Origin: Kiritimatiellia bacterium
GTDB lineage: Bacteria > Verrucomicrobiota > Kiritimatiellia > RFP12 > UBA1067
Reading direction: 5' to 3'
Length of the DNA stretch: 64,000 nt
Assembly (NCBI GenBank): GCA_017427485.1
Contig: JAFRSR010000121.1
Location: forward strand, 5,656 to 69,655
The translations under genes were made by a program, and so were the position numbers. The stretch's first letter is position 1. Each line of letters begins with the position of its first letter. The notes beneath the pieces are model-generated. The model searched no databases. It was given only the letters and a program-made list of their open reading frames with translations, and was not told the DNA's origin. Below, one piece after another: positions 13,132 to 29,355 of the stretch.

Positions 13132-13139
13132 GGGGGCGG

Positions 13140-13397
13140 CGCGGGGGGTGCGGTCGCGACGGAGCGCGGCCCTCCCCGAATTGTCGCCGCCAAGATGGCG
13201 GCTCTCCATGCGGCCGCGACGGAGCGCGGCCCTCCCCGTTGCGGGCGCGCAGGAGGGGCGTGATGCCGTATGGGGAGCCGCCATCTTGGCGGCGTCTGCT
13301 GCGGATACAGCCGCCGGGACGGCGGCTCCCCATGTTGCGGCGCGTCCTGTTTTCCGCACGATTCGCAGATGCGCCCCAAACGAAACGAGAAACTGCC
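13140..13397. repeat. REP cluster (GGAG-type units) plus copy 2 of the 140-bp direct repeat (13258-13397)
   Basis: Two gcgg(t/c)cgcgacggagcgcggccctccc units, then a near-identical copy of 1032-1171. Confidence 0.9.
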
Positions 13398-13421
13398 GCG
13401 GATGCGCCCCTCCCGTGGTGC

Positions 13422-13450
13422 TTGACAGACGGAAAGGGGTCTGCGATAAT
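13422..13450 (+). promoter_or_regulatory. Sigma70-type promoter
   Basis: TTGACA-17nt-GATAAT upstream of the 13492 gene. Confidence 0.65.
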
Positions 13451-13491
13451 ACGCACGGCTTGTGGAAAGAAGCCGTTAAGGAGAAAATGTC

Positions 13492-16400
13492 ATGTCAAAG
13501 ATTCGTTCAAGAATGAAGCACGTTTTCACGTTTCTGGTTGCGGTGGCCGCGCTCGCGGCGTCCGCGTACTTGCCGCCCGTTGAGGAGCGGTGTGGGGTGA
13601 AGGTGGAGATCGGGTCGTTCCCGCAGAAGATCGAGCGGAACAACAAGAACCCGTTCGCCTGGCCGCTCGGCGTCACCGAGGTGGAGGCCGGCGCGCCGCG
13701 TTCCTTCCCCGTGACGCTGGAGAACAAGACGGACAAGTCCGTCTCCGGCGAGCTGGAGGTGTGGATGAACGACGACTGGGACGTGGCGGGTCCGCAGGGT
13801 CCCATTACGCTCGCGCCTGGGGAGAAGAAGGAACTGTCGTACACGGGCACGTCGCGTCCGCGCGCGCTCAACGCCCTCTATCCCGTCCACGCGCGCTTCA
13901 CGCCCGCGGGCGCGAAGAAGGAGGACGCGCCGCACCCGATCGCGATCTTCATGTACAAGAATCCCAACGCGCCGCGTCCCGTACGGAAGTCCCCGCAGCC
14001 TAAGCTCGCCCCCGGCGCGTTCAGTCTCGACGCCGGCTTCGCGCGCACGACATTCATCGAGGTGAAGGGCAAGGTGATGGCCGTCGATGCAGACGGCGCG
14101 CCGAAGGAATGGGGTGCCCACATGACGAAGGGGCGTCCTTCCCCGCGCGGCGAGGCGAAGGCCGGCTTCAACACGCACCCACCCTACAAGAAGGGCGCGG
14201 GGTTCATCTGGAGCGACTTCCCGCTGGATCTGCCGGCCGTGACGCCGCTCGCGTTCTCCTGCTCCAACTTCCTTGTGGACAACCACGGCCAGCCGCCGTC
14301 CGACGGTGCCGAGTACAAGGTGTTCGTGGTTGAGGAGGGACGCGAGCCGCAGCTCGTCTGCTCGCAGACCGTGAAGGACATACTCACGTGGCAGGACATG
14401 TCGGGCGACCTCTCGCCGTGGGCGGGTAAGAAGATCACGCTTCGTCTCTGGACGGGTCCCGGCCCGAAGATGAACACGTGCTGCGACGGCGGCGGCTGGG
14501 GCGACGTGAAGCTGCTGGTGGGCCCGCAGCCGAAGACGCCGGATGAGTCCGACTGGACGGCGCGCGGCGCGTCGGCGCTCGCGGCCGCGAAGGCGGCGCG
14601 CACGGCGGGGACGGACGCGGCGGCGGGGCGTTGGCGTCTGGAGGCGAACGGTGTCGTGTACGGCGCGGGCGTGGCGTATGGAGCGCGCGGGCTCATCGAC
14701 GGCGCGCTCGCGTTCACGGACGGCGAGAAGTCGGTCGTGTTCCGCGGCTTCACCGCGAAGGTGGCGACGGACGACGGTGCGCCGCCGCCCGAGGCAAAGG
14801 CCACGATCCGCGAGGAAAAGGGCACGCTGCGCGTTTCCTGGTCAATTCCCGGCGTGACGCGCAACGCGGCCGGGTTTCCGCGCATCGTCGACCTCGCGGT
14901 CGGCCCCGCCTCCGAGACACCGTATCGCGTCTACATGGGATTCGGCAACGTCGTGGAGGGACCGAAGAAGTTCTCGCTCCACGCGAACGGGTTCGGACTC
15001 TCCACGCGCCACGTGGGCGCGGACTACGCGAACGGGCTGTCCGTGGTGCAGGCCGTGGACGTGGTGCAGGACTCGGTGAGCTGCGACGGAGAGAAGAACC
15101 TCTTCGCGCTCCACGCGCACCATGACGCGACGTTCACGTTCGTGCCCTCGTCGAAGGGCTCGTTCGAGGCGGGACGCCGGTTCCGCGCCGTGGCGGGCTA
15201 CAAGGCGAGCCCCGGACGCGCCGCGCTCGGCTCGCGCATGTGCCTCGACCAGTGGGGGGGCGACTACGCCAAGGCGGCGGAGGGCCTGGCGAAGGCGGCG
15301 AAGTACGGTCTGAACGACTCGATCTTCGTGAAGCACGCCTGGCAGCGCTGGGGGTACGACTACCGTCTGCCGGAGATCTATCCGCCGGCCGGCGACCCGG
15401 CGGCGTTCGGCGCGATGCGCGACGCGTGCCGCGCCGGGGGCATGCTCTTCTGTCCGCACGACAACTACACGGACATCTACCCCGACTGCGACGGCTACAC
15501 CTACGACCTCACGGTGTTCAACCTCGACGGCACGCCGCAGCTCGCGTGGTTCAACCCCGGACGCCACGCGCGCTCCTACCGCTGGGCGCCGCACGCGTTC
15601 CACCCGTGGTGCCTCCGCAACGCGAAGCTGCTGAAGGAGGGATACGACCCCGACGCGATCTTCATCGACGTCTTCACGGCGCACGGTCCGTTCGACTACA
15701 TCGACCGCGAAGGGCGCTTCCACTCGAAGAACGAGACCTCGGCGAGCTGGGGACGTGGCTTCGAGATGTACAGGCAGGGTTTCCAGCGTCCCGACACGGT
15801 GTGCGTGAGCGAGGCCGGTCAGGACCACCTCGTGGGCATCGCGGACGCCGGGCAGAGCGACCACTTCGGCGCGCCGAAGGTGCTGGGCCGGGGGAACTTC
15901 GCGGACAGCGAGCGCACGCCGTGGCACGACATCGCGACGCACAACTACTACGTGCTCTTCGCGGGCGGGCTCGGCGGACGCTACCAGGAGGAGGACGGCT
16001 GGCACAAGGGCGGTGACGCGGAGCTGCACGGCTACGCCTCCGACGACTACCTCTCCAACGGCATCATCGGCGGACGCAACCCGATGTGCGACGGACCGTT
16101 CTCGCGCAACGCGGTGAAGACCTACTGGCTCCAGCACGATGCGTGCGCCGAGCTCGGGAGCGCCGAGTTCCTCGACCTGAAGTACGAGGGCAACATCCAC
16201 TGCCAGCATTCCTTCTTCTCCGACGGCGGGGAGGTGTGGGCCAACCGCCAGACGAACGCGACGTGGCGTCTGCCGAACGGCATCGTACTGCCACCCTACG
16301 GCTACTACGCGCGCACGCGCAACACGGCGAGCGGCGTGGTGGAGAAGGACGGCGTGCGCTGTGCCTTCGCGAAGTCGCCGAAGGGCATCTTCATCGACGC

Positions 16401-17148
16401 GCGCAAGCCGTCCTTACGGCGCGCCTACGGCGCCGTCACGTATCCGCTGCGCGCCGAAGCCGTCGCGCCCGACCGCCTGCGTCTCCACGTGTCGTGGGAG
16501 ATGACGCGCCCGGCGCCCGACTACCAGCCGTTCGTGCACATCTGCAATGAGGAAACGGATCACGAGGGCATCGTGTTCCAGTGCGGCATGGCGCGCGCGA
16601 AGGAAATGTTCGCGAAGGCCGGCAAGTACGAGACGTTCATTGACCTGGCCGTGCCGGCCGGCACGGTTGCCGGCACCTACCGGGTGCGCTACGGCGCGTG
16701 GTGTCCGAAGGGCGGCCACCGCCTTCCGCTCGGCGGCGCGCCGACGGACGGCGGCAGCCGCATCAAGGGCGGCACGATCGAGGTGGCGCGCGCGGACGGC
16801 AGGATCTCCGGCGTCACGTGGAAGCCCGAGGGCTCGCCCGACGAGGCGGCGGCGCGCGACCGTTTGCTTGGCGTGAACCGCGCGGGACGCGCCGTGCAGT
16901 TCGCCGGCTTGAAGACGGACGGCACGTTCCGCTTCGCGGACTGGACGATCACGCCGCTTCCGGACACCGACGCCTTCTCCGCCGAGATCGACCTCGCCGC
17001 GTTCAGCGCGGCGGGCCGCACGGTGGCCGGCGTGGACATGGTTGATCCGGAAGACGGCGCCGCTGCGCCGACCTGGAGCCAGACGGGCAACGTCCTCAAG
17101 GTCGCCTGCGACGCGAAGTCCTTCGCCTACCGCATCCGCCTGCGCTAG
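13492..17148 (+). CDS. Large secreted putative glycoside hydrolase (CBM-like domain plus DUF5696/GH129-like barrel)
   Basis: Signal peptide. NPCBM-like segment (HPPY...SDG...LRL.TGPGP). Barrel-like core WQRWGYDYRLP...HDNYTDIYP...IFIDVF...SEAG. Family assignment is tentative. Confidence 0.55.
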   Translation: MSKIRSRMKHVFTFLVAVAALAASAYLPPVEERCGVKVEIGSFPQKIERNNKNPFAWPLGVTEVEAGAPRSFPVTLENKTDKSVSGELEVWMNDDWDVAGPQGPITLAPGEKKELSYTGTSRPRALNALYPVHARFTPAGAKKEDAPHPIAIFMYKNPNAPRPVRKSPQPKLAPGAFSLDAGFARTTFIEVKGKVMAVDADGAPKEWGAHMTKGRPSPRGEAKAGFNTHPPYKKGAGFIWSDFPLDLPAVTPLAFSCSNFLVDNHGQPPSDGAEYKVFVVEEGREPQLVCSQTVKDILTWQDMSGDLSPWAGKKITLRLWTGPGPKMNTCCDGGGWGDVKLLVGPQPKTPDESDWTARGASALAAAKAARTAGTDAAAGRWRLEANGVVYGAGVAYGARGLIDGALAFTDGEKSVVFRGFTAKVATDDGAPPPEAKATIREEKGTLRVSWSIPGVTRNAAGFPRIVDLAVGPASETPYRVYMGFGNVVEGPKKFSLHANGFGLSTRHVGADYANGLSVVQAVDVVQDSVSCDGEKNLFALHAHHDATFTFVPSSKGSFEAGRRFRAVAGYKASPGRAALGSRMCLDQWGGDYAKAAEGLAKAAKYGLNDSIFVKHAWQRWGYDYRLPEIYPPAGDPAAFGAMRDACRAGGMLFCPHDNYTDIYPDCDGYTYDLTVFNLDGTPQLAWFNPGRHARSYRWAPHAFHPWCLRNAKLLKEGYDPDAIFIDVFTAHGPFDYIDREGRFHSKNETSASWGRGFEMYRQGFQRPDTVCVSEAGQDHLVGIADAGQSDHFGAPKVLGRGNFADSERTPWHDIATHNYYVLFAGGLGGRYQEEDGWHKGGDAELHGYASDDYLSNGIIGGRNPMCDGPFSRNAVKTYWLQHDACAELGSAEFLDLKYEGNIHCQHSFFSDGGEVWANRQTNATWRLPNGIVLPPYGYYARTRNTASGVVEKDGVRCAFAKSPKGIFIDARKPSLRRAYGAVTYPLRAEAVAPDRLRLHVSWEMTRPAPDYQPFVHICNEETDHEGIVFQCGMARAKEMFAKAGKYETFIDLAVPAGTVAGTYRVRYGAWCPKGGHRLPLGGAPTDGGSRIKGGTIEVARADGRISGVTWKPEGSPDEAAARDRLLGVNRAGRAVQFAGLKTDGTFRFADWTITPLPDTDAFSAEIDLAAFSAAGRTVAGVDMVDPEDGAAAPTWSQTGNVLKVACDAKSFAYRIRLR

Positions 17149-17210
17149 GCCCTTGGCTTTGGAAGGGCGCATCCGCGAATCGTGCGGGGTGGTAGATTGT
17201 ACGCCGAGTC

Positions 17211-17265
17211 TGGTAGGGGCACGCGTCCCGCGTGCCCGCGGTCGCGCGGGACGCGCGATCCTACC
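17211..17265. repeat. GTAG REP doublet
   Basis: tGGTAGgggcacgcgtcccgcgtgccc ... gtcgcgcgggacgcgcgatcCTACC. Confidence 0.8.
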
Positions 17266-17274
17266 GGCATGGAA

Positions 17275-17337
17275 ATGGTTACTCAATTGATAGTAACGAA
17301 GTCTTTTTGATGAAATCTTCGCCGACCGCGCGGCCGA
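17275..17337 (-). pseudogene. Duplicated 3' end of the patatin gene (direct repeat of 28363-28425)
   Basis: 52/63 identity by manual alignment. Translates on the minus strand to GRAVGEDFIKKTSLLSIE*, versus the patatin C-terminus GHAAGEDFVKKTPALSIE*. Confidence 0.85.
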
Positions 17338-17416
17338 ACAGCAGAAATATCTCGTTGCCCCCTTGCGATGGATATTCGCATTTTGGTAGAATGTTTTCGT
17401 TTGAAGGAGTAGAGTC

Positions 17417-20400
17417 ATGTCATTGAAGATCTATTGCGGAAGCCGGATCGAGAATCTGGCGGAGAAGTTGAAAGAGTTCCTATTGAAGGATCGACAGGGC
17501 AAGGATAAGGATCCGTTTTTGTTCTCCAAGGTCGTGGTGCCGAACGTCAATGTGGCGAAGTGGCTGCAGATACGGATGTTCGCCAAGGAGCCGGACCTCT
17601 GCGCGGGCATCAAGTTCCCTTTCATGGAGAAGGAGCTGAAGGAATTGATGATGGCGGGGCTGCCGCCGGAAGAGCGGGCAGAAGTCGATCTTCTGCCAGA
17701 CCATGCCTACGCGAATGCGATTGTGTCCATCCTGCTGGCGGATCCTAGGAAACAGCCGGAGCATGGCAAACTCGCCCCGTTTCGTAGCTACATCATGAAC
17801 TCTGATGATCCCGCAGATGCAGTCGCGATTACCGAACAGAAGCAGGCGGCGATGACTTGGCAGCTGGCGGACAAGCTAGCAAACCTGATGGACTCCTACG
17901 AGGTGTATCGTCCTGAGATCATCGAGGAGTGGCTGGGAACCGGAAAGTGCCCATACGACTTGCCGAAAGGCGCAACGGCAGAAGCGGAGGCCGCGCTGGC
18001 GCGTGCGCTGTGGGGCACGAATGGAAAATTCCAGCAAGATGGTAAGCTTTTGTCGTTGCGGCAGCTGTATAACCGAGTCAAGGGAAAAGCTCCAAGCGAG
18101 ACACCGAAGACAATCTACTTCTTCGGACAGTCGACGCTTTCCTATCTGCAGGCGCAGATTCTGGTCTGGCTGGCGAAGACGCACAATGTCGTGGTGTTTT
18201 ACCGCAATCCCTGCCGCGAGTTCTGGGAGGATATCAAGACGGCCAAGGAGGAACGCAAGGCGCGCGGGGAAAGCATTGCCGGTGCCAATCCTGAAGAAGA
18301 AGTCATTTGCGAGAACGAGCTTCTCAAGACGCTGGGCATCGCGGGACGGGAGACGTTGCGCTTGCTGGTGGAACTTGAAGCGTCGCCGGATGAAGCCGAG
18401 CGAATCGGATTCGACAGGGAGTCGCTTGACGATGAAGAGGCTGCGGATGAAACGGTTCTAGAAAAGATGCAGGAATCCATTCGATGCCGAACGAGTGAGG
18501 TCGCGAAATGCCGACAGGATGCGTCGGTTCAGATTGTCGGCACGCCCGGCGTGCGCCGCGAGATCGAGATGGTGTACAATTCGATCCTCGGAAGCGTCGC
18601 ACGTCCGAAAGAGGTATCGGGAAAGCGTCCGTGGCCGGACTGCTCGTTCTCGGACATCGCCGTGATCGTGCCGGACATGCAGACGTACCGTCCGGTGATC
18701 GAGGCCGTCTTTGATGCGCGTGGCGAGGTGCCGTACGGCCTTCTCGACACGTCCGCCAGCGACGACAGCAATTACCTTCGCGGGTTCCTCTCCTTGATAG
18801 AGCTCGGACGCAAGGGGCTGAACCGTGAGCGGCTTTTCAACGTGCTGGAGAATCCGTGCGTGCAGCGCGCGCTGGGGTTCGCACGCGAGGATGTCGTCAA
18901 GTGGCGTGAACTTACCGAGAAGATCGGCGCCTTCGACGGGTTCAAGCACGATGACGATGCGGGGTATTTCGACTGGTCGTCGGCGCTGAAGCGTCTTCGC
19001 CTTGCGCGGCTCGCCAACAAGGTCAGCGACGAGGACGGGAACGACCTTCCGCTCGTCAATGCTGGCGGAGACGAGGCTCTCAAGCTTTCCGAAGTCGTGG
19101 AACTGCTGTACCGCGATTTGTCCGACACGCTGTTCGACGAGGAGGGGAAGCCTCGCGCCCTGCCGTTAGTCGCCGATCGGGAGGAAGACGGGACGCGCGC
19201 AGACTGTTGGGCGGAACGCCTGGTTCGTCTCGCGAAGTCGTATCTTGCAGTCGATAAGGATGACAATCTCGAGAACAAGGTGGGTCAGTCCGTGATCGGG
19301 ACGCTCTACTCGCTTGGGGGGATTTCCGGCGGGCAGAGCTTTGAACTGGCCGCGTCCGCAGTGGAGCATTTCGTGGGCGGCATCCCCTGCCGCAAGGGCA
19401 GTTTTCTGACGAGCGGCGTCACGATCGGCGGATTCTCTTCCCTGAGCGCGATTCCGTTCAAGCAGGTTTACATGATGGGCATGGGCGCGGGTGGTTTCCC
19501 GGGCCGCGCAAGCGACTCCACGCTGGACGTTCGCGGAACGGGCTGGCGTCTGGGCGACGTCTCGATTCCGAACCGCAACCGGTTCCTGTTCCTCGAATCC
19601 ATCATGTCGGTTCGCGACCGGCTGGTTTTCAGTTACCCCAACAAGGACATCGAGAAGGACGCGGAGCTGTTCCCATCCGGCATCGTGCGGGAGGTGGAGA
19701 AGTTCATCGGCAAGCACGTGCTGGACTACGATGCCCAGACGGAGGAGAAAGATAAAAAGTTCCAGGAGTTCAAGTGTTATCCGCTTCTGGAACGTGGAGA
19801 AGCGGGGCCGCGCAAGGAGGGCGAGAAGCGTCCGACAGACGACATCGTCTGGGTAGCCGACGATCCCTTCGCGGGGCTGCTGCCGACGTATTCCAAGGCG
19901 GCGCGAAAACTGGCACGCGCGCGGGCCGAGGGGGAGGGTGCGAAACTTGAAGTCAAGGCGGTCACGGAGGAGGAGGCAAAGCCGAGGTTAGAACTTTCGG
20001 CGAAGGTTCTGGCGGATTTCCTGAAGAATCCTGTCCGTGCCGTGATGCGCTATCGTTTCGGCATCAGTGTGGCGGGCTATCTTGAAACCGACCTCGACCC
20101 GGATAGTCCGCTTGGTTCCTTGGATGGCCCCGACAAGTGGAATCTCCAGGCGAAGTGGCTGGAGTCGGATGCGAGCGGGGAAATGGAAAAGGAGATTCGC
20201 CGACTGCAGCTGTCTGGAAAGATGCCGACGGGTTTCCTCGGCGAATACGCCAAAAGCGCAATCATGCAGAAGGCCGGTGCGGGACTTGACGGCATCAAGG
20301 CTTTCGTGGAGGGTTTTGCCCTGTCCGACGGTAAAGACAACACGTTGCATCTTGACCACGTTGCTGATTTTGGCATCGGCGGAGCGGATGAACTGAAAGT

Positions 20401-20986
20401 GCGCTTTGTCGCCGAGGTCCTGAACTGGAAGGATGAGGGGGACGAAGTGCCGGTGCTCGTGACGGGATGGCTTGGGGAGAAGGTGCCCAAACTACCGTCC
20501 GATAATTGCTTTGACGCCTTTCTTGCCTATCTGATGGCCTTGCTCTCAGGGAAGTGTACGGCGCAAAGGTTGAAGGTTGGAGTTGTCGATCTCACGAACG
20601 GAACGACCTGCGCCTGGATGTGGAGTGGTATTGACGCCGATATGGCGGGCAAGTATCTCGAAACGCTCGCGCGGTCTTTCCTGACGTATGAACAGACACG
20701 TGACGGCAAGATGGTCGACTTCACCAGCAAGAAACTTTTGGAGGCCTTGAACAAGTACAAGCCGCCGTATGCCTGGGACGAGATACTGGAGACGGTGACT
20801 GGCGAAGATCACGACAATTCAAGCCGTTCCTTCAACAACGACCTCGTGTTGGAGCAGAATCTTGAGCGGTTCAAACGAGAACCAGGAAATGGCGAGGAGC
20901 TTAAGGGAATATACGAGGAACGCTACCAGCTGCCAGTGAGCGGCACCCGTGTGGAGACGGTTGAAGAGGAGGCGAACCATGAGTGA
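17417..20986 (+). CDS. recC: Exodeoxyribonuclease V gamma subunit
   Basis: N-terminal SRIENLAEKL..DPF..VVVPN..WL, NPCREFWEDI, REIE, DIAV.VPD...Y.P.IEAVF, IPFK.V..MGM..G.FP and FLESIMSVRDRL.FSY. First gene of a recCBD arrangement. Confidence 0.9.
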   Translation: MSLKIYCGSRIENLAEKLKEFLLKDRQGKDKDPFLFSKVVVPNVNVAKWLQIRMFAKEPDLCAGIKFPFMEKELKELMMAGLPPEERAEVDLLPDHAYANAIVSILLADPRKQPEHGKLAPFRSYIMNSDDPADAVAITEQKQAAMTWQLADKLANLMDSYEVYRPEIIEEWLGTGKCPYDLPKGATAEAEAALARALWGTNGKFQQDGKLLSLRQLYNRVKGKAPSETPKTIYFFGQSTLSYLQAQILVWLAKTHNVVVFYRNPCREFWEDIKTAKEERKARGESIAGANPEEEVICENELLKTLGIAGRETLRLLVELEASPDEAERIGFDRESLDDEEAADETVLEKMQESIRCRTSEVAKCRQDASVQIVGTPGVRREIEMVYNSILGSVARPKEVSGKRPWPDCSFSDIAVIVPDMQTYRPVIEAVFDARGEVPYGLLDTSASDDSNYLRGFLSLIELGRKGLNRERLFNVLENPCVQRALGFAREDVVKWRELTEKIGAFDGFKHDDDAGYFDWSSALKRLRLARLANKVSDEDGNDLPLVNAGGDEALKLSEVVELLYRDLSDTLFDEEGKPRALPLVADREEDGTRADCWAERLVRLAKSYLAVDKDDNLENKVGQSVIGTLYSLGGISGGQSFELAASAVEHFVGGIPCRKGSFLTSGVTIGGFSSLSAIPFKQVYMMGMGAGGFPGRASDSTLDVRGTGWRLGDVSIPNRNRFLFLESIMSVRDRLVFSYPNKDIEKDAELFPSGIVREVEKFIGKHVLDYDAQTEEKDKKFQEFKCYPLLERGEAGPRKEGEKRPTDDIVWVADDPFAGLLPTYSKAARKLARARAEGEGAKLEVKAVTEEEAKPRLELSAKVLADFLKNPVRAVMRYRFGISVAGYLETDLDPDSPLGSLDGPDKWNLQAKWLESDASGEMEKEIRRLQLSGKMPTGFLGEYAKSAIMQKAGAGLDGIKAFVEGFALSDGKDNTLHLDHVADFGIGGADELKVRFVAEVLNWKDEGDEVPVLVTGWLGEKVPKLPSDNCFDAFLAYLMALLSGKCTAQRLKVGVVDLTNGTTCAWMWSGIDADMAGKYLETLARSFLTYEQTRDGKMVDFTSKKLLEALNKYKPPYAWDEILETVTGEDHDNSSRSFNNDLVLEQNLERFKREPGNGEELKGIYEERYQLPVSGTRVETVEEEANHE

Positions 20987-23900
20987 GGAGAACAAAGTCA
21001 TCAAAGAGCGGCTGGGTGAGCGTGACGCGCAGGGCTGCTTTTGCGACGATAAGTACGTCTGCAACACCATCGACTATACGAGGGATGCAATCATCGAGGC
21101 GTCTGCGGGCACGGGCAAGACATACACGCTCCAGAGCATCGTCCTCAAGTTGTTGCTGGAGGGGACTATCGATAGCGTGAAGAACCTGCTGCTCGTGACA
21201 TACACGGAGAAGGCGGCGGGCGAGCTCAAGGACAAGATCCGCGAGGTGCTGGATGAGGCCGGGTGCCTGCCATCGGACTTTGACGAGGTCACGATCTGCA
21301 CGATCCATTCCTTCTGCCGCAGCCTCCTGACGGAATACGCCTTCGAGAACCGCGTCCCGATGCAGGTGGAAATCGGAGGCTCGGATAATGACCTCATCCA
21401 CCGCGCCGTGCGCACGGCCCTCCAGTGTGCCGAGTTCAAGGCGCGTTACGGGACATCGTACGGAGCCTACATGGAAAAAGCAGGCCTGACGTCCACGGAT
21501 GACCTCGTGGCGGCGGCCGAGAACGAATTGAAGGACAGTATGAGGTTGGGACAATCGCCGTCTGCCCCGGACGATGTCTGCAATGATGTTCGCCGAATTC
21601 TTCAGGAAACTATAAAGGTTACCAGTTTCAATTTTGAAGGTTTGGCCGTCCATGGCAGCGATAAGGGATTCCAGCCGGCATGTGAGATTGTCCGTGCAAA
21701 GAGCAATGACTTTTCTGCTGAAGATTTCCTGAAATTGTTTGACGCGGTTTCGAGCATTGCTGGGGTGTCAGTGAAGCAAGGCAAAACATTTGAGAAGTTA
21801 AATCCACGTATCAAAGTCGACGGGAAATGGGCTCGCCTATATGAAGTTCGTCCAGACCTGCGCAGATTCGCAGAAACGTTGCGAAATGCACGCGAAGTTC
21901 TTTCGAGGCAATTTGTAAACGGCCTTGCATTCCTCGCATGGCCAGTGTTCAAGCGTCTTAAGGAAGAAGTGTCCATGCTGACGTTCGACGATCTTGTGAG
22001 CCGAGCCCACGATGCCATCGTCGCAGAGTCCAAATTGGGCGAGCAGAGCGTGTTGCTCAAGTCTATACGCCATACATACCGCATTGCGCTTGTGGACGAA
22101 TTCCAGGATACCGACGGCAAGCAGTGGGAGATATTCAAGAGCATCTTCTCGGATGAGGTCAACAAGATCGACGATGGACCCAAGCCGAAGCAGGGCGCGC
22201 TGCTGGTTGTCGGTGACCCCAAGCAGGCGATCTATTCCTTCAGGGGAGCGGATGTCGGGGCTTATCTTATAGCCAAGGGAGATATCACAAAATACAATGC
22301 CGCCGCACGCCACTCGCTGGACACGACTTACCGCTCTTCTCCGAAACTCGTCAATGCGTTCAATAGGATTTTCGGCGCGAAGGTTGGAGCTGATCCTTTC
22401 TGGTTTGAGGGCATGAAGGAAGGTGACGGAAGCATCGACTACGAAGATGTCAACCCGCCGCCGGACGGTACCGAGAAATTCAATGGGATTGCGCCCCATG
22501 ACGAGTTCGGCGAGCCGGTGGAGCTACTGGAATCTCTGCCGCAGGACAAGGAGCCAAAGACGCCGGCTGCCTCCAATTCGGGATATGGAAACAAGACACG
22601 CTGTCTGCCTGAGTTCCTGCGCAACACCGCGCGGGAGATCAAACGTCTCATGGCGCTTAATCCCGCCTATACGACCGTGGACAAGGACACCGGCGGACGG
22701 GTGCCGCACACATTCTCCTACCGTGACATGTGCATTCTTGTGCGTGGGCATGCAGACGCGAACAAGGCGCGGGAGATTCTTGCCTCCGCCAACATTCCCT
22801 TTTCAATCTACAAGGAGCAGGGAATATATGCCTCTGCCGAGGCCGAGGCGTTGCTTGCGCTCTTCGACTTCCTTTCCGTGCCCAGTCGGCGCGGACGTCT
22901 TGAGGCGCTTTTGCTTACCCCCCTCTTTGGATATAGTCCGGATCAGCTTGAGGCTCGGCGCAAGCAGGAAGATCGCGAATTCTCCAAGCAGCTGGATGTT
23001 TGGCAGGAGCTTGTTTCCAAGAAGGAGTGGAGCAAGTTGTTCGAAAGCGTGATGAACGATACCTTGCTCGCGCATCCGGCCAAGGACGATTCCGACTTCG
23101 ACCGTCGCTGGGCGGCGACACGTCAGATACTCGACAAGCTTTTGGAACAGGTTGGGCGTAAGGCGCAGACAATCGACGAGTTCGCGGACGTTCTTCGCTC
23201 TTGGCGTCAGGACGACAAGCGCGCCGGAGAAGACGGGGCGCTGCGGCGCAAGGAGTCCGATGCTGATCGCGTCCAGATCATGACGATGCACGTCTCGAAG
23301 GGACTGGAGTACCCGGTCGTGTTCATCGCGTGGGGCTTTGGAGAACTTGCCTATCAGGTCAAGGACGAGGAGAAGGAGGCAGCCATTCGCGAGGAGAAGC
23401 GTCTGCTCTACGTGGCACTGACCCGCGCAGAGCATAAGCTTTACCTTCCCTGGTCCCGATGGGCACAGCATCAGCGACTAGTTAAAAGCAAGGCGGCAAA
23501 TGAAAAGATCCCGGTAAGTGAAACCGGCATCGGCAGCGCTGGCTCGGCGTTGCTGATCCAGGAGGGAAATCCGAATTCCGGTTTCCTTGCCCGCGGTATC
23601 CGCGCGTTCTTCAAAAGCGACGATGCGGCGAAGTGCGATGATGCGGCGAAGGCGGCAGTGATGAAGGTGTCGGAACGCCTGCGGAAGTTCGATAGCATGC
23701 CGAAGAGCACTTCCAAGCAAGATGCCGCGACAGAGGTCGGAGCCGCGGATCCTAAAATCAAGGTTTACGAGCTGGATGCCAATGCGCTTGCGCGGCAGAA
23801 GATCGATGACGATTCGTACTCGTCCGTCCATCGAAAAGCGAAAAAAGCCGTCGAATCGGCGGATGATGCCGGCAAGGGCGACGAAAACCATGACGATGAC

Positions 23901-24713
23901 ATGTCGCAGAATAAGAAGACTCTCCTGCCGCGCAACAACATTTCGGGCGACGTGTTTCACGAGATCATGGAGACGCTGTGCAACAACGACGACTCCGACG
24001 GCGAGACGCTGGGATTCTGTACGGTAGGCAAGGCGGATTTCGGGACATTAGTGAAGAAAGCGAAATCCCCCTTGCTGAGCCTTATTGGCAAGGTCATGCG
24101 CAAGCATCAGCTTTCCTCTCAGAAAGGCGCGAAGGACGCTCAGAAAGACGCGAAGGGGGAAACCACGGAGCTTGTGCTGGCCCGCATGGTCTGGCGTGTG
24201 TTGAACATTCCGATTGTCATTGGCGGCAGGCCAATCGTACTCAAGGACATTGGCGCATCCAACCGTCGTGCAGAGCTGGAGTTCGTGGTGAATCGCGCGA
24301 AAGTGCTGGGCGATGAGGTTGCATCGGACGGCGGCGGTCGCGGGGCGACCGCCCTACCGGATCCGCAGAGTGAAAGCACGTTTAACGGAAAAATCGATCT
24401 GCTGGTTCGCCCCGATGGCTTGGGAGCGCCCGTCTACATCCTTGACTGGAAGACGAATTCGCTATCAGACTATGGTTCTAAGGCCCTGGAGCGCTCGATG
24501 ACGAAGTCGGACTATCACCTCCAGTACAGATTCTACTCGCAGGCGGTGCGGTATTGGCTGCATGGAGCCGAGCTCGGCGGGGTAGCCTACCTGTACGTCC
24601 GCGCGGGCGAGCATTCGAAGAGTCTAGAGGGGGATACGGGCGTATTCGTCGCCAAGGCTGCGGATATCTCCCAGGAGACCTGCCGTGCGGCAATCAAAGA
24701 TGCATTGAAGTGA
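20979..24713 (+). CDS. recB: Exodeoxyribonuclease V beta subunit (UvrD-like helicase plus nuclease)
   Basis: IEASAGTGKTYT, TIHSFC, LVDEFQDTD, VGDPKQAIYSFRGAD, MTMHVSKGLEYP, RLLYVALTRA. C-terminal GKIDL...ILDWKTN...Y.LQ..FY nuclease motif. Confidence 0.93.
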   Translation: MSEENKVIKERLGERDAQGCFCDDKYVCNTIDYTRDAIIEASAGTGKTYTLQSIVLKLLLEGTIDSVKNLLLVTYTEKAAGELKDKIREVLDEAGCLPSDFDEVTICTIHSFCRSLLTEYAFENRVPMQVEIGGSDNDLIHRAVRTALQCAEFKARYGTSYGAYMEKAGLTSTDDLVAAAENELKDSMRLGQSPSAPDDVCNDVRRILQETIKVTSFNFEGLAVHGSDKGFQPACEIVRAKSNDFSAEDFLKLFDAVSSIAGVSVKQGKTFEKLNPRIKVDGKWARLYEVRPDLRRFAETLRNAREVLSRQFVNGLAFLAWPVFKRLKEEVSMLTFDDLVSRAHDAIVAESKLGEQSVLLKSIRHTYRIALVDEFQDTDGKQWEIFKSIFSDEVNKIDDGPKPKQGALLVVGDPKQAIYSFRGADVGAYLIAKGDITKYNAAARHSLDTTYRSSPKLVNAFNRIFGAKVGADPFWFEGMKEGDGSIDYEDVNPPPDGTEKFNGIAPHDEFGEPVELLESLPQDKEPKTPAASNSGYGNKTRCLPEFLRNTAREIKRLMALNPAYTTVDKDTGGRVPHTFSYRDMCILVRGHADANKAREILASANIPFSIYKEQGIYASAEAEALLALFDFLSVPSRRGRLEALLLTPLFGYSPDQLEARRKQEDREFSKQLDVWQELVSKKEWSKLFESVMNDTLLAHPAKDDSDFDRRWAATRQILDKLLEQVGRKAQTIDEFADVLRSWRQDDKRAGEDGALRRKESDADRVQIMTMHVSKGLEYPVVFIAWGFGELAYQVKDEEKEAAIREEKRLLYVALTRAEHKLYLPWSRWAQHQRLVKSKAANEKIPVSETGIGSAGSALLIQEGNPNSGFLARGIRAFFKSDDAAKCDDAAKAAVMKVSERLRKFDSMPKSTSKQDAATEVGAADPKIKVYELDANALARQKIDDDSYSSVHRKAKKAVESADDAGKGDENHDDDMSQNKKTLLPRNNISGDVFHEIMETLCNNDDSDGETLGFCTVGKADFGTLVKKAKSPLLSLIGKVMRKHQLSSQKGAKDAQKDAKGETTELVLARMVWRVLNIPIVIGGRPIVLKDIGASNRRAELEFVVNRAKVLGDEVASDGGGRGATALPDPQSESTFNGKIDLLVRPDGLGAPVYILDWKTNSLSDYGSKALERSMTKSDYHLQYRFYSQAVRYWLHGAELGGVAYLYVRAGEHSKSLEGDTGVFVAKAADISQETCRAAIKDALK

Positions 24714-24726
24714 GAGGAACTTTGCC

Positions 24727-26700
24727 ATGACAATTGAAGAAGCGGTGCGGCGGTTGCGTCTATTCGGGATCCCGCCAGCGGGCGACGGAACGAAGGAGGT
24801 CCGGGATGTTCTTGCTCACATTCTCGCGGGAGGCGCGCTGTCGCTTTCGGATATGCAGTCCGCACGCGATGTTGTGGAGCACCTGCGGTCCAAGGATCCG
24901 GGCGTGTATCTGTTCCTCGCCGCGATGTGCCTTTCGCTGAAGGACGGGAATACGTTCCTTCGGATCGGGAAGGGGGCGGACCTGCTGAAGAAGGCGGGGC
25001 ACATGGAGGATGGACATGACGCCAAGCACAACACATCGGTCGATGAGTGCTGGGTGAAGTATGCGCAGGCTGCAGGCGATGTGCTGGCGAAAGGGGATGG
25101 ACAGCTTGTCACTTGCACGGACGTCGCCAAGGACGAAAAGGGATGGTTCTTCGAACGGGTCTGGGATTCGGTGAAGGCGGTGTCGGACAGGCTGAGCGAG
25201 ATGGCGGGGGAAGGAGATTTTGGCGAGTTGCCGGAGGAGATTGTCCGCAAGTCGGTTCTGTTTAACGGCAAGGATGGTCAATACTCCTTGAACGGTGAAC
25301 AGCAACAAGCCGTAAGGACGGTTGGAAAACGTCGGTTCACCGTGGTCACCGGAGGACCTGGTACGGGCAAGACGACGGTGGTCTGCGCAATCTTGCGCGC
25401 CTTGATGGAGAGCAAAGTCGTGACCGCCGAGGACGTTGCGCTGGTTGCGCCGACCGGGCGCGCCGGACAGCGGATGGGGGAGTCGATACATGACCAATGC
25501 GAAGCGGCGGTCGGAATGCCCGCAGAGATCAAAAGTCAGATCAAGGAAATGTCAGGCGCGACGATCCACACGACATTGGGCGGCTTTCCGCCGAACTGGA
25601 AGTACACGAAGGAGAACCAACTCCCGTACAAGCTGGTAATCGTCGATGAATCGTCGATGGTTGACGTGCACCTGATGAAGGCACTCCTCGATGCGTTGCC
25701 CGATCAATGTCGTCTAGTGTTGCTGGGCGATAAGGACCAGTTGCCGTCCGTTGAAGCGGGGGCGGTGCTGGGCGACGTGGTGGCAAACTATGACGAACGG
25801 ACGGTCGTCGAGCTGAAGGAATCGAACCGCTTTAAGGGGGCGCTCGCCGATTGCGCCCGCGCGGTCAATGGGGGCGACAAGGCACTCTTCGAAAAATCGG
25901 CTAAGGTATTGCCGGTTGCGGGCGAGGTCTGGACGGAATCCTTGTCCAGTGAGGATGACGAGAACGTCAACCGCGTGTTCCATTATGACATCGGGGAATC
26001 GGTGAAGCCGGATGCCTGCCGCAAGCTGCTTCTTGAATGGGTGCGTAACTACGGGCTGCTTCACGTCCCGGCAGACGCGGCCAAGGGAACGGCTCGGGCC
26101 GAAGGTCTGCTTATCGGCGCCGCGAAGTCAGTGGGGACGGACAATTCCGTTTTCAAGGATGGTACAAAGACAGATGAGGTCGCTGCTTTGTTCACGCAGC
26201 TTAACCAGTCCCGCATCCTGACAGTGGTGCGCGAGGGCCCGTTTGGGGCCGTCGGCATCAACGACCTTGTCATTACGGAGCGATTTGGCGGACGTCGCCC
26301 GGCGAATCCGCTGTCGAAGGTCGGCGTGCCTGTCATCGTCACGCGAAACACGCGCGAACGGAATCTCTGGAACGGGGACATCGGCGTGACCGTGAGGGGG
26401 CCGGACGGGATGACCGTTTTGTTCCCGCGGGGCAAGAAGGTCGCGGTGTGTCCTGTTGGCCTCCTGCCCGAGCATGAGCTTGCGTATGCGATGACGGTGC
26501 ACAAGAGCCAGGGGTCGGAGTTTGGGAACGTGATGGTGGTTTTGCCCGACGACAAGGAGCATCCGCTTCTCAACAGGCAGATCGTCTACACCGGCATCAC
26601 CCGCGCGAAGAAGCGGGCCGTGCTCGTGGGAACCAGGGCGGCGCTTGACACGGCGCTGAAGAGGAAGGTGGAAAGGGACACCGGGATTAAGCGACACTAA
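24727..26700 (+). CDS. recD: Exodeoxyribonuclease V alpha subunit
   Basis: VTGGPGTGKTT, APTGRAG, VIVDESSMVD, LGDKDQLPSVEAG, NGDIG, YAMTVHKSQGSEF, YTGITRAK. Confidence 0.93.
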   Translation: MTIEEAVRRLRLFGIPPAGDGTKEVRDVLAHILAGGALSLSDMQSARDVVEHLRSKDPGVYLFLAAMCLSLKDGNTFLRIGKGADLLKKAGHMEDGHDAKHNTSVDECWVKYAQAAGDVLAKGDGQLVTCTDVAKDEKGWFFERVWDSVKAVSDRLSEMAGEGDFGELPEEIVRKSVLFNGKDGQYSLNGEQQQAVRTVGKRRFTVVTGGPGTGKTTVVCAILRALMESKVVTAEDVALVAPTGRAGQRMGESIHDQCEAAVGMPAEIKSQIKEMSGATIHTTLGGFPPNWKYTKENQLPYKLVIVDESSMVDVHLMKALLDALPDQCRLVLLGDKDQLPSVEAGAVLGDVVANYDERTVVELKESNRFKGALADCARAVNGGDKALFEKSAKVLPVAGEVWTESLSSEDDENVNRVFHYDIGESVKPDACRKLLLEWVRNYGLLHVPADAAKGTARAEGLLIGAAKSVGTDNSVFKDGTKTDEVAALFTQLNQSRILTVVREGPFGAVGINDLVITERFGGRRPANPLSKVGVPVIVTRNTRERNLWNGDIGVTVRGPDGMTVLFPRGKKVAVCPVGLLPEHELAYAMTVHKSQGSEFGNVMVVLPDDKEHPLLNRQIVYTGITRAKKRAVLVGTRAALDTALKRKVERDTGIKRH

Positions 26701-26752
26701 GCTTTCAAAAGGTAGCGGACACGGGGCGCGGAAGTGTGGTATAATAAACGCC

Positions 26753-28324
26753 GTGGAGAAATGCTTCAACATCGCGGGGCCGTGCTTCCCGGACGAGCAC
26801 TACATGTTGCCGGCGCTTGAAAGGCTGCCGGGGATCATGCGCATCGTCGAGCAACGTAGCTACTTCGTGTTGCACGCCGCGCGGCAGTCAGGCAAGACGA
26901 CGGCGCTCTTGGCGCTTGTGAAGGAAATCAATGCGAAGGGCGAGATGAACGCCCTCTATTTCACCGTCGAGACCGTCCAGCGGTTCACTGACCCCAGAGA
27001 CGGAATACCGAAGATCGTGGAGTCGATGCGCAATGCCGTCTTGCGTCATCCAATCTTCAAGGATCTCGTCCGCGATCCCGATTCGTCCATTCCCGCGCTT
27101 CTCCCGCCGCCGCGGGGTCTGGATGTCAAGGCGCTGCTTGCCATGTTATCCGAACATTCAAAGAAGCCGCTCGCCGTGTTCTTCGACGAGGTGGACTGCC
27201 TTTCGGACGACACGCTCGTGACTTTTCTCCGCCAGCTACGTGACGGCTACATTACGCGGGACACTTCACCTTTCCCCTCGTCGATCGCACTTGTTGGGAT
27301 GCGCGATATCCGCGACTACAAGGCTCGGATCCGTCCGGACGGCCAGACGCTCGGCGACGCGAGCCCGTTCAACATCATCAAGCGCGACCTGACGATTCCC
27401 AACTTCGGCAGGGATGACGTAGCCCGTCTCTACGCGCAGCATACAGAGGCGACCGGACAGGTCTTTTGCGACGGGGTTGTGGACAGGGTGTACGAATACA
27501 CGCGCGGCCAGCCGTGGCTCGTGAACGCCCTTGCCGAGGAGTGCGTCGAGAATATCCACGCATATCGTTACGACGAGCCTGTTACCGTCGATGACATCGC
27601 CACGGCGAAGGAGACGATCATCCGCGCAAGGGGCACGCATGTGGACAGCCTCATGGAACGGCTGAAGGAACCGCGCGTGAGACGCATCGTGGAGCCGGTC
27701 ATTCTCGGCAAGGAACGCGGAATGCCCGTCAATGATGACGACTATAGATACGTCCTTGATCTAGGGCTTCTCCGCGAGAACGAGAACCGCGTACTCGTCC
27801 CGGGCAATTCGATGTATGCCGAGATCATCCTCCGGTATCTTTCCAACGACGAGCAGGTGTATTTCTACTCGAAGTACGAGAAGCCGTTCTGGCTCAAGCC
27901 CGACGGCTCGCTCGACATGCCCGCGCTGATGGCGGAGTTCCAGCGGTTCTGGCGCGAGAACAGCGGGGCGGACCACGAGGTGTACGGCTACAACGAGGCG
28001 ACGCCGCACCTCGTGCTGATGGGCTACCTCCAGCGCGTCGTGAACGGCGGAGGGCGCATCGCCCGCGAGATGGCGCTCGGCTCGAAGCGCCTCGACCTCT
28101 GCGTGGAGTTCGGGAAGTTCCGCTACGCCGTGGAGCTCAAGATGAAGCGCAACTTCTCGCCGACCGAATCGCCCGCGCAGCTCGTCGGCTACCTCGACCA
28201 CCTCAAGCTTCCCGAAGGCTGGATGGCGATTTTCGACGATGACGCGTTAAAGTCCTGGGACGAGAAGATCTACACCCGCGACGAGGTGGTAGACGGCAAG
28301 ACCATCCACTTCATCGGACTGTGA
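26753..28324 (+). CDS. AAA-family ATPase with C-terminal PD-(D/E)XK nuclease-like domain
   Basis: FNIAGPC, Walker A ARQSGKTT, Walker B FFDEVD, SPFNI, GQPWLVNAL, C-terminal RE...G..RLDL......AVELK. Confidence 0.8.
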   Translation: MEKCFNIAGPCFPDEHYMLPALERLPGIMRIVEQRSYFVLHAARQSGKTTALLALVKEINAKGEMNALYFTVETVQRFTDPRDGIPKIVESMRNAVLRHPIFKDLVRDPDSSIPALLPPPRGLDVKALLAMLSEHSKKPLAVFFDEVDCLSDDTLVTFLRQLRDGYITRDTSPFPSSIALVGMRDIRDYKARIRPDGQTLGDASPFNIIKRDLTIPNFGRDDVARLYAQHTEATGQVFCDGVVDRVYEYTRGQPWLVNALAEECVENIHAYRYDEPVTVDDIATAKETIIRARGTHVDSLMERLKEPRVRRIVEPVILGKERGMPVNDDDYRYVLDLGLLRENENRVLVPGNSMYAEIILRYLSNDEQVYFYSKYEKPFWLKPDGSLDMPALMAEFQRFWRENSGADHEVYGYNEATPHLVLMGYLQRVVNGGGRIAREMALGSKRLDLCVEFGKFRYAVELKMKRNFSPTESPAQLVGYLDHLKLPEGWMAIFDDDALKSWDEKIYTRDEVVDGKTIHFIGL

Positions 28325-28366
28325 GGACCTGACGATGGTGCATGAAATGAATTTTCGGCATCATGG

Positions 28367-29221
28367 TTACTCAATTGATAATGCCGGGGTCTTCTTGACG
28401 AAATCTTCGCCAGCTGCGTGGCCGATGTCGTAGATGCGCTGCATGCGCGCGGGGTCGTGGCAGACGCGCGAGATGTCGAGCGGCTCCTGGGGCGCGATGA
28501 GCGCGGCGGCGCCGGCGGCCACGCGCGCGTCGATGTACTCGAGTGTCTCGTTGTACCAGACGTGGCGCGTGGTGAGCGCCTTGTAGATCGCGGGGTGGCG
28601 TCGCAGAAGGGGCTTCAGGAGGCACATGCGCTTCTTGGGGAACTTGCGGTAGCCGTGCGGACGCGTGGTGATCACGAGGTTCCAGTCGTAGCCCAGGCTC
28701 TCGAAGTAGCGGAGCGGGATGCCGTCCGAGAGCCCGCCGTCGAGCAGTTCGCGTCCGTCAATAGCGACGGGACGCGAGACGATCGGCATGGAGGCCGAGG
28801 CTTGGATCCACTTGAATGCGGTCTCGTCGGCCGCGTCGAGCCGTTTGTAGACGGGCTGGCCCGTGGCGCAGTCCGTGGTGACGACGTGGAACTCCATCAG
28901 ATTCGCGGCGAAGGCCGCCGCGTCGAACACGTCCAGCTCGAGCGGCAGCTTGCGGTAGCAGAAATCCGCCCCGAAGAGGTCGCCCGTCGTGAGGAGCGAC
29001 TTCCACGAGCAGTAGCGCGGATCGCGCGCGAAGCGTTTGTTGTAGCGGATCACGCGCCCGATCTGCCCGCTCTTGTAGTTGCAGCCGAAGCAGGCGCCGG
29101 CTGAGACGCCGACCACGCCGTCGAACGCGACGCCGCGCTCCATGAGCACGTCGAGCACGCCCGCCGTGAACAGGCCGCGCATCGCGCCGCCTTCCAGGAC
29201 CAGTCCTCTCTTCGCATGCAC
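28367..29221 (-). CDS. Patatin-like phospholipase family protein
   Basis: GLVLEGGAMRG, GVSAG (GxSxG), ASASMP, LDGG. GTG start at 29221. Confidence 0.9.
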   Translation of the reverse strand: MHAKRGLVLEGGAMRGLFTAGVLDVLMERGVAFDGVVGVSAGACFGCNYKSGQIGRVIRYNKRFARDPRYCSWKSLLTTGDLFGADFCYRKLPLELDVFDAAAFAANLMEFHVVTTDCATGQPVYKRLDAADETAFKWIQASASMPIVSRPVAIDGRELLDGGLSDGIPLRYFESLGYDWNLVITTRPHGYRKFPKKRMCLLKPLLRRHPAIYKALTTRHVWYNETLEYIDARVAAGAAALIAPQEPLDISRVCHDPARMQRIYDIGHAAGEDFVKKTPALSIE

Positions 29222-29355
29222 GCCTATAGTGTAGCAAATCCGTCTTGCCGGGACAACGGGCGCCCATTGGCAATTCTGTGTCCGCACTTGCGCGAACGCA
29301 GGGATTTTGCTATTCTGTTGCCACAAACATCGACGGACTAAGGAGGGAACGACAA

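Follow-up and report, generated by a model that had tools for sequence, protein, structure and literature searches.

Introduction

RecBCD degrades linear DNA, and the genes for RecBCD and AddAB are commonly viewed as stable housekeeping genes; analogous replacement of one system by the other is known between large clades. Genomic islands integrate at the 3′ ends of genes via tyrosine recombinases, and integrase-less derivatives of such islands are cis-mobilisable elements. A complementary distribution of RecBCD and AddAB, with analogous replacement, is described by Rocha et al. (2005, PMC1193525) and by Bernheim et al. (2019, PMC6452273); the latter report both systems together in only 16 genomes. 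In the window analyzed in this study, a 64,000-nucleotide (nt) stretch of the genome of a Kiritimatiellia bacterium (assembly GCA_017427485.1, contig JAFRSR010000121.1, positions 5,656 to 69,655), a recC-recB-recD operon (recCBD) and a gene for an AAA+ ATPase with a predicted PD-(D/E)XK nuclease domain lie between the gene of a 1218-amino-acid (aa) hypothetical protein (hyp1218) and a patatin-like phospholipase gene. An earlier reading of this DNA, made without database searches (the sequence-only reading), had proposed that RecBCD is not core repair machinery here but an acquired accessory cassette, which might form a defence module together with the ATPase-nuclease. The comparisons described below indicate that the locus is probably a bounded mosaic insertion of a laterally acquired recCBD of standard function, in which the AAA+ gene is a separate passenger.

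The genome (G000) comprises 6.30 Mb in 446 contigs, with a GC content of 0.635, 90% completeness, and 7% contamination, and the window is located on its contig C50 (70.9 kb). Comparisons covered the 33 genomes of the same GTDB genus, those other than G000 being numbered G0xx; the 17 termed high-quality have a completeness of 90% or more and a contamination of no more than 5%. The names given to homologues point to Kiritimatiellae for G000, and the sequencing runs that contain the DNA of the window are animal-gut and bovine metagenomes.

An insertion between hyp1218 and patatin

The site was found in three states among G000 and two relatives. In G008 (contig C251), the hyp1218 (87% aa identity to G000) and patatin (92%) genes are convergent, with stops that overlap by 17 nt and nothing between them. 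In G012, the closest relative of G000 by RpoB (95% identity), hyp1218 (93-94%) and patatin (86%) are 2,158 nt apart. The G012 insert (G012:C285 3032-5189, L032) has a GC content of 0.51, compared with 0.69 in the flank, is bracketed by a GC-rich inverted repeat, and carries, besides a 296-aa open reading frame (ORF) without a family, the genes of a Polbeta-type nucleotidyltransferase and a HepT-like RNase; the MNT/HepT pair is a toxin-antitoxin pair at the hyp1218/patatin junction. Comparison of G008, G012, and G000 thus revealed a single junction holding 0, 2.2, or 11.2 kb. The 11.2 kb that separates the convergent hyp1218 and patatin genes of G000 is an insertion, and the empty site, which the sequence-only reading had suggested looking for in relatives, exists in G008, though that is a different species from G000. 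The insertion would comprise positions 17149-28366 (11,218 nt), at a junction where the two genes ancestrally overlapped tail to tail. The hyp1218 protein has no match in Pfam, NCBIfam, or PADLOC.

The insert would be a mosaic of four parts (Table 1): palindromes native to G000 that resemble repetitive extragenic palindromic (REP) elements, the 63 nt of an orphaned patatin tail, a recC-recB-recD operon that is intact, has its own promoter, and belongs to a lineage (type A, see below) exchanged among gut Kiritimatiellae, and a gene-sized AAA+/PD-(D/E)XK unit, also with its own promoter, that is placed differently in every genome. Domain searches found only recC, recB, recD, and the AAA+ gene between the two patatin tails, as the sequence-only reading had stated. 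RecB has the composition of a superfamily 1A (SF1A) helicase with a C-terminal PD-(D/E)XK nuclease, and RecD is an SF1B helicase of the RecD1 type, scoring above the NCBIfam cut-off. The block 17357-17416 ahead of recC is common to G000 and G005. The lack of an integrase noted in that reading was also confirmed, with no Pfam match to an integrase or a transposase among the 26 window ORFs scanned (8 + 18). No tRNA gene was found in the window, and Rfam gave no match within 12000-31000.

The island is less GC-rich than its surroundings, as had been noted (0.58, compared with 0.69 in the left flank and 0.66 in the right), and 9% of 11-kb segments of G000 have a lower GC content. The GC content of recCBD is 0.54-0.59 in all of the hosts examined, so the dip is a trait of the genes and no mark of a low-GC donor. 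Low GC content was therefore rejected as a donor signal.

Table 1. Features of the recCBD insertion and its immediate neighbours (window coordinates)
Feature	Coordinates	Strand	Remarks
hyp1218	13492..17148	+	1218 aa; conserved gene to the left of the site
REP-like palindromic elements	17165-17187 and 17212-17265		Inverted repeats between hyp1218 and the orphan tail
Left repeat copy	17275..17337	-	Orphaned last 18 patatin codons, stop, 4 nt (GRAVGEDFIKKTSLLSIE, then stop)
Promoter-like site ahead of recC	17363..17392	+	TTGCGA-18-TAGAAT, TG-extended
recC	17417..20986	+	Exonuc_V_gamma PF04257 2.3e-40; RecC_C PF17946 8e-13
recB	20949..24713	+	UvrD-helicase 5.9e-46; UvrD_C 1.6e-28; PDDEXK_1 residues 998-1229
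recD	24727..26700	+	TIGR01447 357.8 bits, above the 310.15 cut-off, full length
AAA+/nuclease unit	26732..28354	+	523-aa ORF 26753-28324; own promoter-like site 26716-26745 overlapping the unit start
Right repeat copy	28363..28425	-	Working 3′ end of patatin: last 18 codons, stop, 4 nt (GHAAGEDFVKKTPALSIE, then stop)
Patatin-like phospholipase gene	28367..29326	-	PF01734 4.2e-22 and DUF6363; right neighbour of the insertion site

The duplicated patatin tail

A repeat search of the window confirmed that the insert is bracketed by a two-copy, 63-nt direct repeat with 83% identity (52/63), the first 18 nt of both copies being identical (ATGGTTACTCAATTGATA). The right copy translates to IYDIGHAAGEDFVKKTPALSIE followed by the stop, the true C-terminus of patatin, and the left copy translates to FLLFGRAVGEDFIKKTSLLSIE and a stop. 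Patatin homology on the left begins with the G of GRA; what precedes that residue is not patatin sequence, and no patatin body adjoins the copy, bearing out its earlier description as an orphan variant. The two tails end differently (...DFVKKTPALSIE on the right, ...DFIKKTSLLSIE in the orphan). In the whole 6.30-Mb genome the 18-mer core has only these two sites, even when up to 3 mismatches are allowed, a tolerance at which about 4 sites would be expected by chance (uniform composition), and a blastn search of each junction against G000 returned the partner copy as the sole match.

The patatin body (28455-29234) is 90-100% identical in nucleotide sequence between G000 and G008. Beyond the conserved ...YDIGRxAGE motif, the C-terminus takes several unrelated forms among 12 genus orthologues, none of which has the G000 tail; insertions therefore fall within dispensable last codons and provide a new tail. 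Among 185,579 species genomes, the 18-mer core had 16 matches, all in unrelated taxa, compared with about 17 expected by chance (estimated from the collection size and 4^18), and a degenerate 32-mer spanning both copies had no matches in metagenome contigs, so that no second host of the tail was found. Nucleotide similarity among G000, G008, and G012 drops off right beyond the patatin start (window 29235 onward, compared with L031 and L032), and the hyp1218-patatin pair is thus a small conserved block amid variable surroundings.

We infer that the direct repeat was left behind when incoming DNA became joined to the patatin 3′ end, and two models can be drawn for that event. In the first (att/Campbell), a circle carrying a copy of the patatin tail would have integrated by a single crossover, or site-specifically, with the crossover in the 18-nt core; the right tail (...DFVKKTPALSIE) would then be native, and the orphan, brought in with the circle, would have 45 foreign inner nt. 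In the second, linear DNA anchored in patatin would have been joined illegitimately at the GRA codon (homology-facilitated illegitimate recombination), and the orphan tail (...DFIKKTSLLSIE) would be the recipient's own, left behind. In a test for the second model, the patatin body next to the tail contained no stretch in which divergence was elevated, and the divergence fits both models alike.

A further possibility is that the repeats are the attL and attR sites of an integrase-less, cis-mobilisable island that could be excised by a recombinase encoded elsewhere. Such an island would account for the empty site in G008, and for the fact that the whole insert is bracketed by imperfect direct repeats that have an 18-nt core in common and lie at the 3′ end of a protein gene. 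Of the features that define a site-specific island, direct repeats that duplicate the target are present here, whereas no integrase or recombinase gene was found among the ORFs of the island or the other window ORFs scanned. No joint of 17275 to 28363 occurs among the joints listed for four sequencing runs, the core occurs in other genomes only at the chance level, the 32-mer is unmatched, other recCBD loci lack bracketing repeats, and the insert combines two units whose placement is independent. We therefore regard an att-bounded island as possible but somewhat unlikely.

Distribution and phylogeny of recCBD

RecB was found in 12 of the 33 genus genomes (8 of the 17 high-quality ones). Besides G000, 24 genus genomes were sampled for RecC, and it was found in 9 of them. 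The recCBD genes of the genus fall into at least three lineages, that of G000 being designated type A, and there are two recBCD sets in G021. By identity to G000, the order of relatives for RecB runs counter to that for RpoB: the RecB and RpoB identities are 86% and 86% for G005, 75% and 93-95% for G021, 74% and 94% for G024, 51% and 91% for G045, and 47% and 95% for G012. In the maximum-likelihood RecB tree, G000 groups with G005 (SH-aLRT 100), G012 with G016, and G045 with G020, while the RpoB tree places G000 with G012, G019, G024, and G021 (99). Approximately unbiased (AU) tests on the RecB data rejected the RpoB-type clade (p 3.2e-9) and a grouping of G000, G024, and G021a without G005 (p 1.7e-4), and a test on the RpoB data rejected the pairing of G000 with G005 (p 2e-75). 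The sequence-only reading had proposed comparing the RecB phylogeny with the species tree, and had named a single-copy, universal, syntenic, vertically inherited recCBD as the sign against acquisition. RecB is single-copy in G000, its distribution is patchy, and the two trees conflict.

The extent of homology among type-A loci points in the same direction. Homology between G000 and G005 runs from 17357 (recC promoter) to 26702 (recD stop) and no further. In eight metagenome loci with type-A recC, homology to G000 begins only about 13 nt before the recC ATG, and none of them carries the orphan tail, patatin, hyp1218, or the AAA+ gene. Upstream contexts of recCBD are common only within a G021-like group, and no downstream context is common among seven loci. 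The operon thus appears to have been laterally acquired and exchanged among species of gut Kiritimatiellae. A plasmid or phage vehicle was considered and rejected: RecC had 11 matches in a plasmid collection, all at no more than 25% identity, and none in phages. In G005, the closest relative of the G000 cassette, recC (L033, G005:C124 599-4100) consists of two overlapping ORFs (599-2941 and 2790-4100), reflecting a frameshift or an assembly error, and a fragment upstream of it may, judging from a motif, be that of a DUF234-type ATPase.

Vertical descent would account for the same distribution if several ancestral RecBCD paralogues and AddAB had been present in the genus, followed by differential loss and rearrangement. 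The two recBCD sets of G021, the presence of both RecBCD and AddAB in G002, and the uniform GC content of the cassette in all hosts are consistent with such a history. So is a 33-nt, GC-rich, REP-like palindrome that lies in frame inside recB (24329-24362) and has about 80 blast matches across G000: an element of this genus, it is found inside recB of both G000 and G005. It encodes ...ASDGGGRGATALPD..., a peptide that is identical in the RecB of G005, occurs as a variant in that of G024, and is missing from the other RecB lineages. However, even within type A, the grouping of G000 with G005 to the exclusion of G024 and G021 conflicts with RpoB, at least four ancestral systems and many losses would be needed, and the empty site in G008 together with the orphan tail shows a recent insertion. 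Differential loss is, accordingly, an improbable explanation.

AddAB and the role of RecBCD

AddB orthologues were found in 15 of the 33 genus genomes, and in G009, which lacks RecBCD, an AddB-like gene adjoins an AddA-like gene. Both systems are present in only one genus genome (G002), and, with the queries used, neither was found in seven, four of which are of high quality (G042, G013, G004, and G022). The sequence-only reading had proposed a search of G000 for AddAB or a second recBCD; no AddA or AddB orthologue and no further RecB was found there. The other SF1 helicases of G000 are a PcrA/UvrD-like protein and a 988-aa UvrD-helicase/PD-(D/E)XK fusion (G000:C29:9491-14385, L047), which is no AddA orthologue. 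The fusion gene is followed by one for an N6_N4 DNA methylase, and the two may be a defence or restriction-related pair.

Given the lack of AddAB, RecBCD is probably the only end-resection and break-end processing enzyme of G000, and the near mutual exclusion of RecBCD and AddAB in the genus, which is complementary as in the literature, argues against an accessory rather than a core role. The sequence-only reading was thus right in part: acquisition is supported by the empty site, the alternative cargo in G012, the patchy distribution, and the tree conflict, but accessory status is not, and neither is the contrast with core repair machinery. As judged from its domains, RecBCD most likely does its standard job, binding double-strand ends, unwinding and degrading them, and loading RecA; linear foreign DNA would be degraded incidentally. 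RecBCD, in three lineages, and AddAB would replace one another laterally in the genus, and G000 would have this one system only.

The AAA+/PD-(D/E)XK gene

A model of the full-length AAA+ protein (predicted local distance difference test score, pLDDT, 78.5) resembled archaeal AAA+ ATPases, with 2qen and 2fna matching at about 1e-9, as well as Orc1/Cdc6. Its C-terminal 119 residues (pLDDT 81.6) best matched PD-(D/E)XK nucleases such as Bax1, McrC, Hjc, SfsA, and NucS (E 5e-4 to 5e-2). The residues GKT47-49, D145/E146, E415, D448, E461, and K463 are invariant in 18 sequences. These fold matches, together with the invariant E415, D448, E461, and K463, therefore support the AAA ATPase/PD-(D/E)XK label given in the sequence-only reading, and the protein is predicted to be an Orc1/Cdc6-like AAA+ ATPase with a C-terminal PD-(D/E)XK nuclease domain. 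Pfam matches were below threshold (26.0 bits for AAA_22, whose cut-off is 27; E 0.095 for PDDEXK_9), and a sequence-profile search of the PDB gave nothing below E 0.5. The atlas neighbours of the protein (scores 0.99-1.00) carry AAA_35 or AAA-ATPase_like and PDDEXK_3 or PDDEXK_9 domains, and a large database contains over 7,500 proteins of the family.

The AAA+ gene is not linked to recCBD. It adjoins recD in none of the eight other recCBD loci that have sequence downstream of recD, and in six of six genomes its orthologues are on contigs other than those of recCBD, the sixth (G024) being cut by a contig end. Orthologues in G021, G005, G020, G045, and G012 (85-94%) share only 26732-28354 with the window and have no common flanks; homology starts at 26732-26754 and ends at 28324-28354. 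In six genomes, the unit extends from a TGGTATAAT -10 box to no more than 30 nt past the stop, in a context that is different in each. G000 itself has five further full-length paralogues and one fragment. The unit is gene-sized, with no visible means of moving: a self-mobilising element was considered and rejected, as no flanking direct repeats were found at the five paralogue loci and the 18-mer core was at none of them. Only one paralogue (C26) adjoins a DDE transposase.

These observations bear on the proposal that recCBD and the AAA+/nuclease form one acquired anti-phage module, surplus to core repair. The ability of RecBCD to degrade linear DNA, the similarity of the AAA+ nuclease domain to McrC, Bax1, and Hjc, and the toxin-antitoxin pair at the same site in G012 would favour such a module. 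The family is also present in 10 of the 12 RecB-positive genus genomes, compared with 8 of the 21 RecB-negative ones, a contrast that is confounded by kinship and genome size, either of which could explain it. Evidence against the module comes from the lack of adjacency at other loci, the separate placement of the orthologues without shared flanks, and the five full-length paralogues. PADLOC gave no families for the AAA+ gene, RecC, or hyp1218, and only generic helicase profiles (GajB, RecD-like) for RecB and RecD; moreover, with no AddAB in G000, RecBCD is not surplus. The association of the two appears incidental, and a joint defence module is very unlikely.

An assembly or binning artefact, in which a chimeric contig joined foreign recCBD to a fragmented metagenome-assembled genome (MAG) with 7% contamination, is extremely improbable. 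The 18 identical nt of the repeats are not long enough to mislead an assembler, and each flank has 87-94% identity to relatives in the genus. The right junction is bridged by a contig of an independent study that joins the AAA+ gene to patatin (27927-29021), and of the words sampled across the left junction, 94-99% are present in three possible-source runs and in X4 of the same study.

In run X10, the depth of recCBD bins is 0.2-7, compared with 70-300 for flanking bins; depth was not used for ranking. In one X10 contig (depth 6.4), 26693 is followed, after 3 letters, by 28389. As a lead only, this single contig, found at a 90% likeness threshold, could be a variant that lacks the AAA+ gene and has recD immediately next to patatin.

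Points against a laterally acquired, bounded insertion

Several points weigh against the preferred reading of a laterally acquired recCBD insertion with a separate AAA+ passenger. The species tree is that of a single marker (RpoB), and the clades used in the AU tests were named after the trees had been seen. The genus genomes are MAGs, with G000 in 446 contigs at 7% contamination, and divergent forms may have been missed in the four high-quality genomes with neither RecBCD nor AddAB. RecC matches TIGR01450 over residues 3-955 (1.1e-82) with 278.6 bits, below the equivalog cut-off of 582.9, and RecB matches TIGR00609 (4.6e-133) with 445.6 bits, below that of 696. No empty site with a single tail copy was found in the same species, and among the contigs listed, no piece from an independent study spans the left junction (17239-17446). 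A bracketing repeat occurs at the G000 locus only, and at none of the three other recCBD loci with full 3-kb flanks. The insertion mechanism is a conjecture, as neither an integrase nor a circular form was found.

Neighbouring features

Several families of REP-like elements are found near hyp1218. The element at 17212-17266 is repeated on many G000 contigs, a cluster at 13140-13400 has 220 short blast matches in G000, and a 23-nt inverted pair (13354-13376 and 17165-17187, 96% complementary) flanks the entire hyp1218 gene. Farther upstream, a 698-aa ORF (2731-4827, + strand) with a reverse-transcriptase domain (RVT_1, 6.7e-13) directly precedes a repeat-rich surface-protein gene of 2763 aa (4840-13131); the reverse transcriptase could be of the diversity-generating, retron, or defence type. 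Elsewhere in G000, C185 carries the full rpoB, and another, divergent rpoB-like frame (G000:C19:12479-13669; 1671-aa open frame; partial matches, E 2.7e-47) is either contamination of the bin or an unusual paralogue.

Significance

The recCBD insertion is real and bounded; it was acquired laterally, bears a scar, and probably has an ordinary function. It offers a concrete case for asking by what route a core recombination enzyme comes to be swapped, and for what reason, pressure from phage inhibitors and compatibility with Chi being examples. Replacement is seen here at a fine scale, in an uncultured animal-gut lineage, with the insertion site, the empty site, and the scar all identifiable. 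It also calls for caution, in that an island with a nuclease neighbour does not amount to a defence system without co-occurrence data. On a broader and decidedly unlikely view, double-strand-end processing in gut Kiritimatiellae would be a swappable accessory cassette, with three RecBCD lineages and AddAB entering hot spots and turning over like defence systems. If that were true, an arms race with phage-encoded inhibitors of RecBCD and AddAB would be a possible drive, and the 63-nt repeat would mark an integrase-independent or trans-mobilised route.

Comparison with known systems

The AAA+ protein shares its length, domain layout, and multi-copy occurrence with "predicted AAA-ATPase" proteins of about 520 aa (AAA_35 or AAA-ATPase_like, with PDDEXK_3 or PDDEXK_9), although its own Pfam matches are below threshold. 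Like genomic islands at gene 3′ ends, the locus has imperfect repeats that duplicate the 3′ end of the target, an identical core, and a target that is kept intact; in contrast to them, no integrase, tRNA target, or excision product was seen, and the cargo is made up of two separately placed units. RecBCD has the same three subunits and domain sets as the E. coli enzyme (exodeoxyribonuclease V), here in the gene order recC-recB-recD. The distribution of RecBCD and AddAB is complementary, as in the known replacement pattern, with both systems in 1 of 33 genomes. Unlike in that pattern, the species between which the swap is found all belong to a single GTDB genus (RpoB identity 83-95%), and it involves three RecBCD lineages as well as AddAB, one copy being a bounded insertion for which a relative has the empty site.

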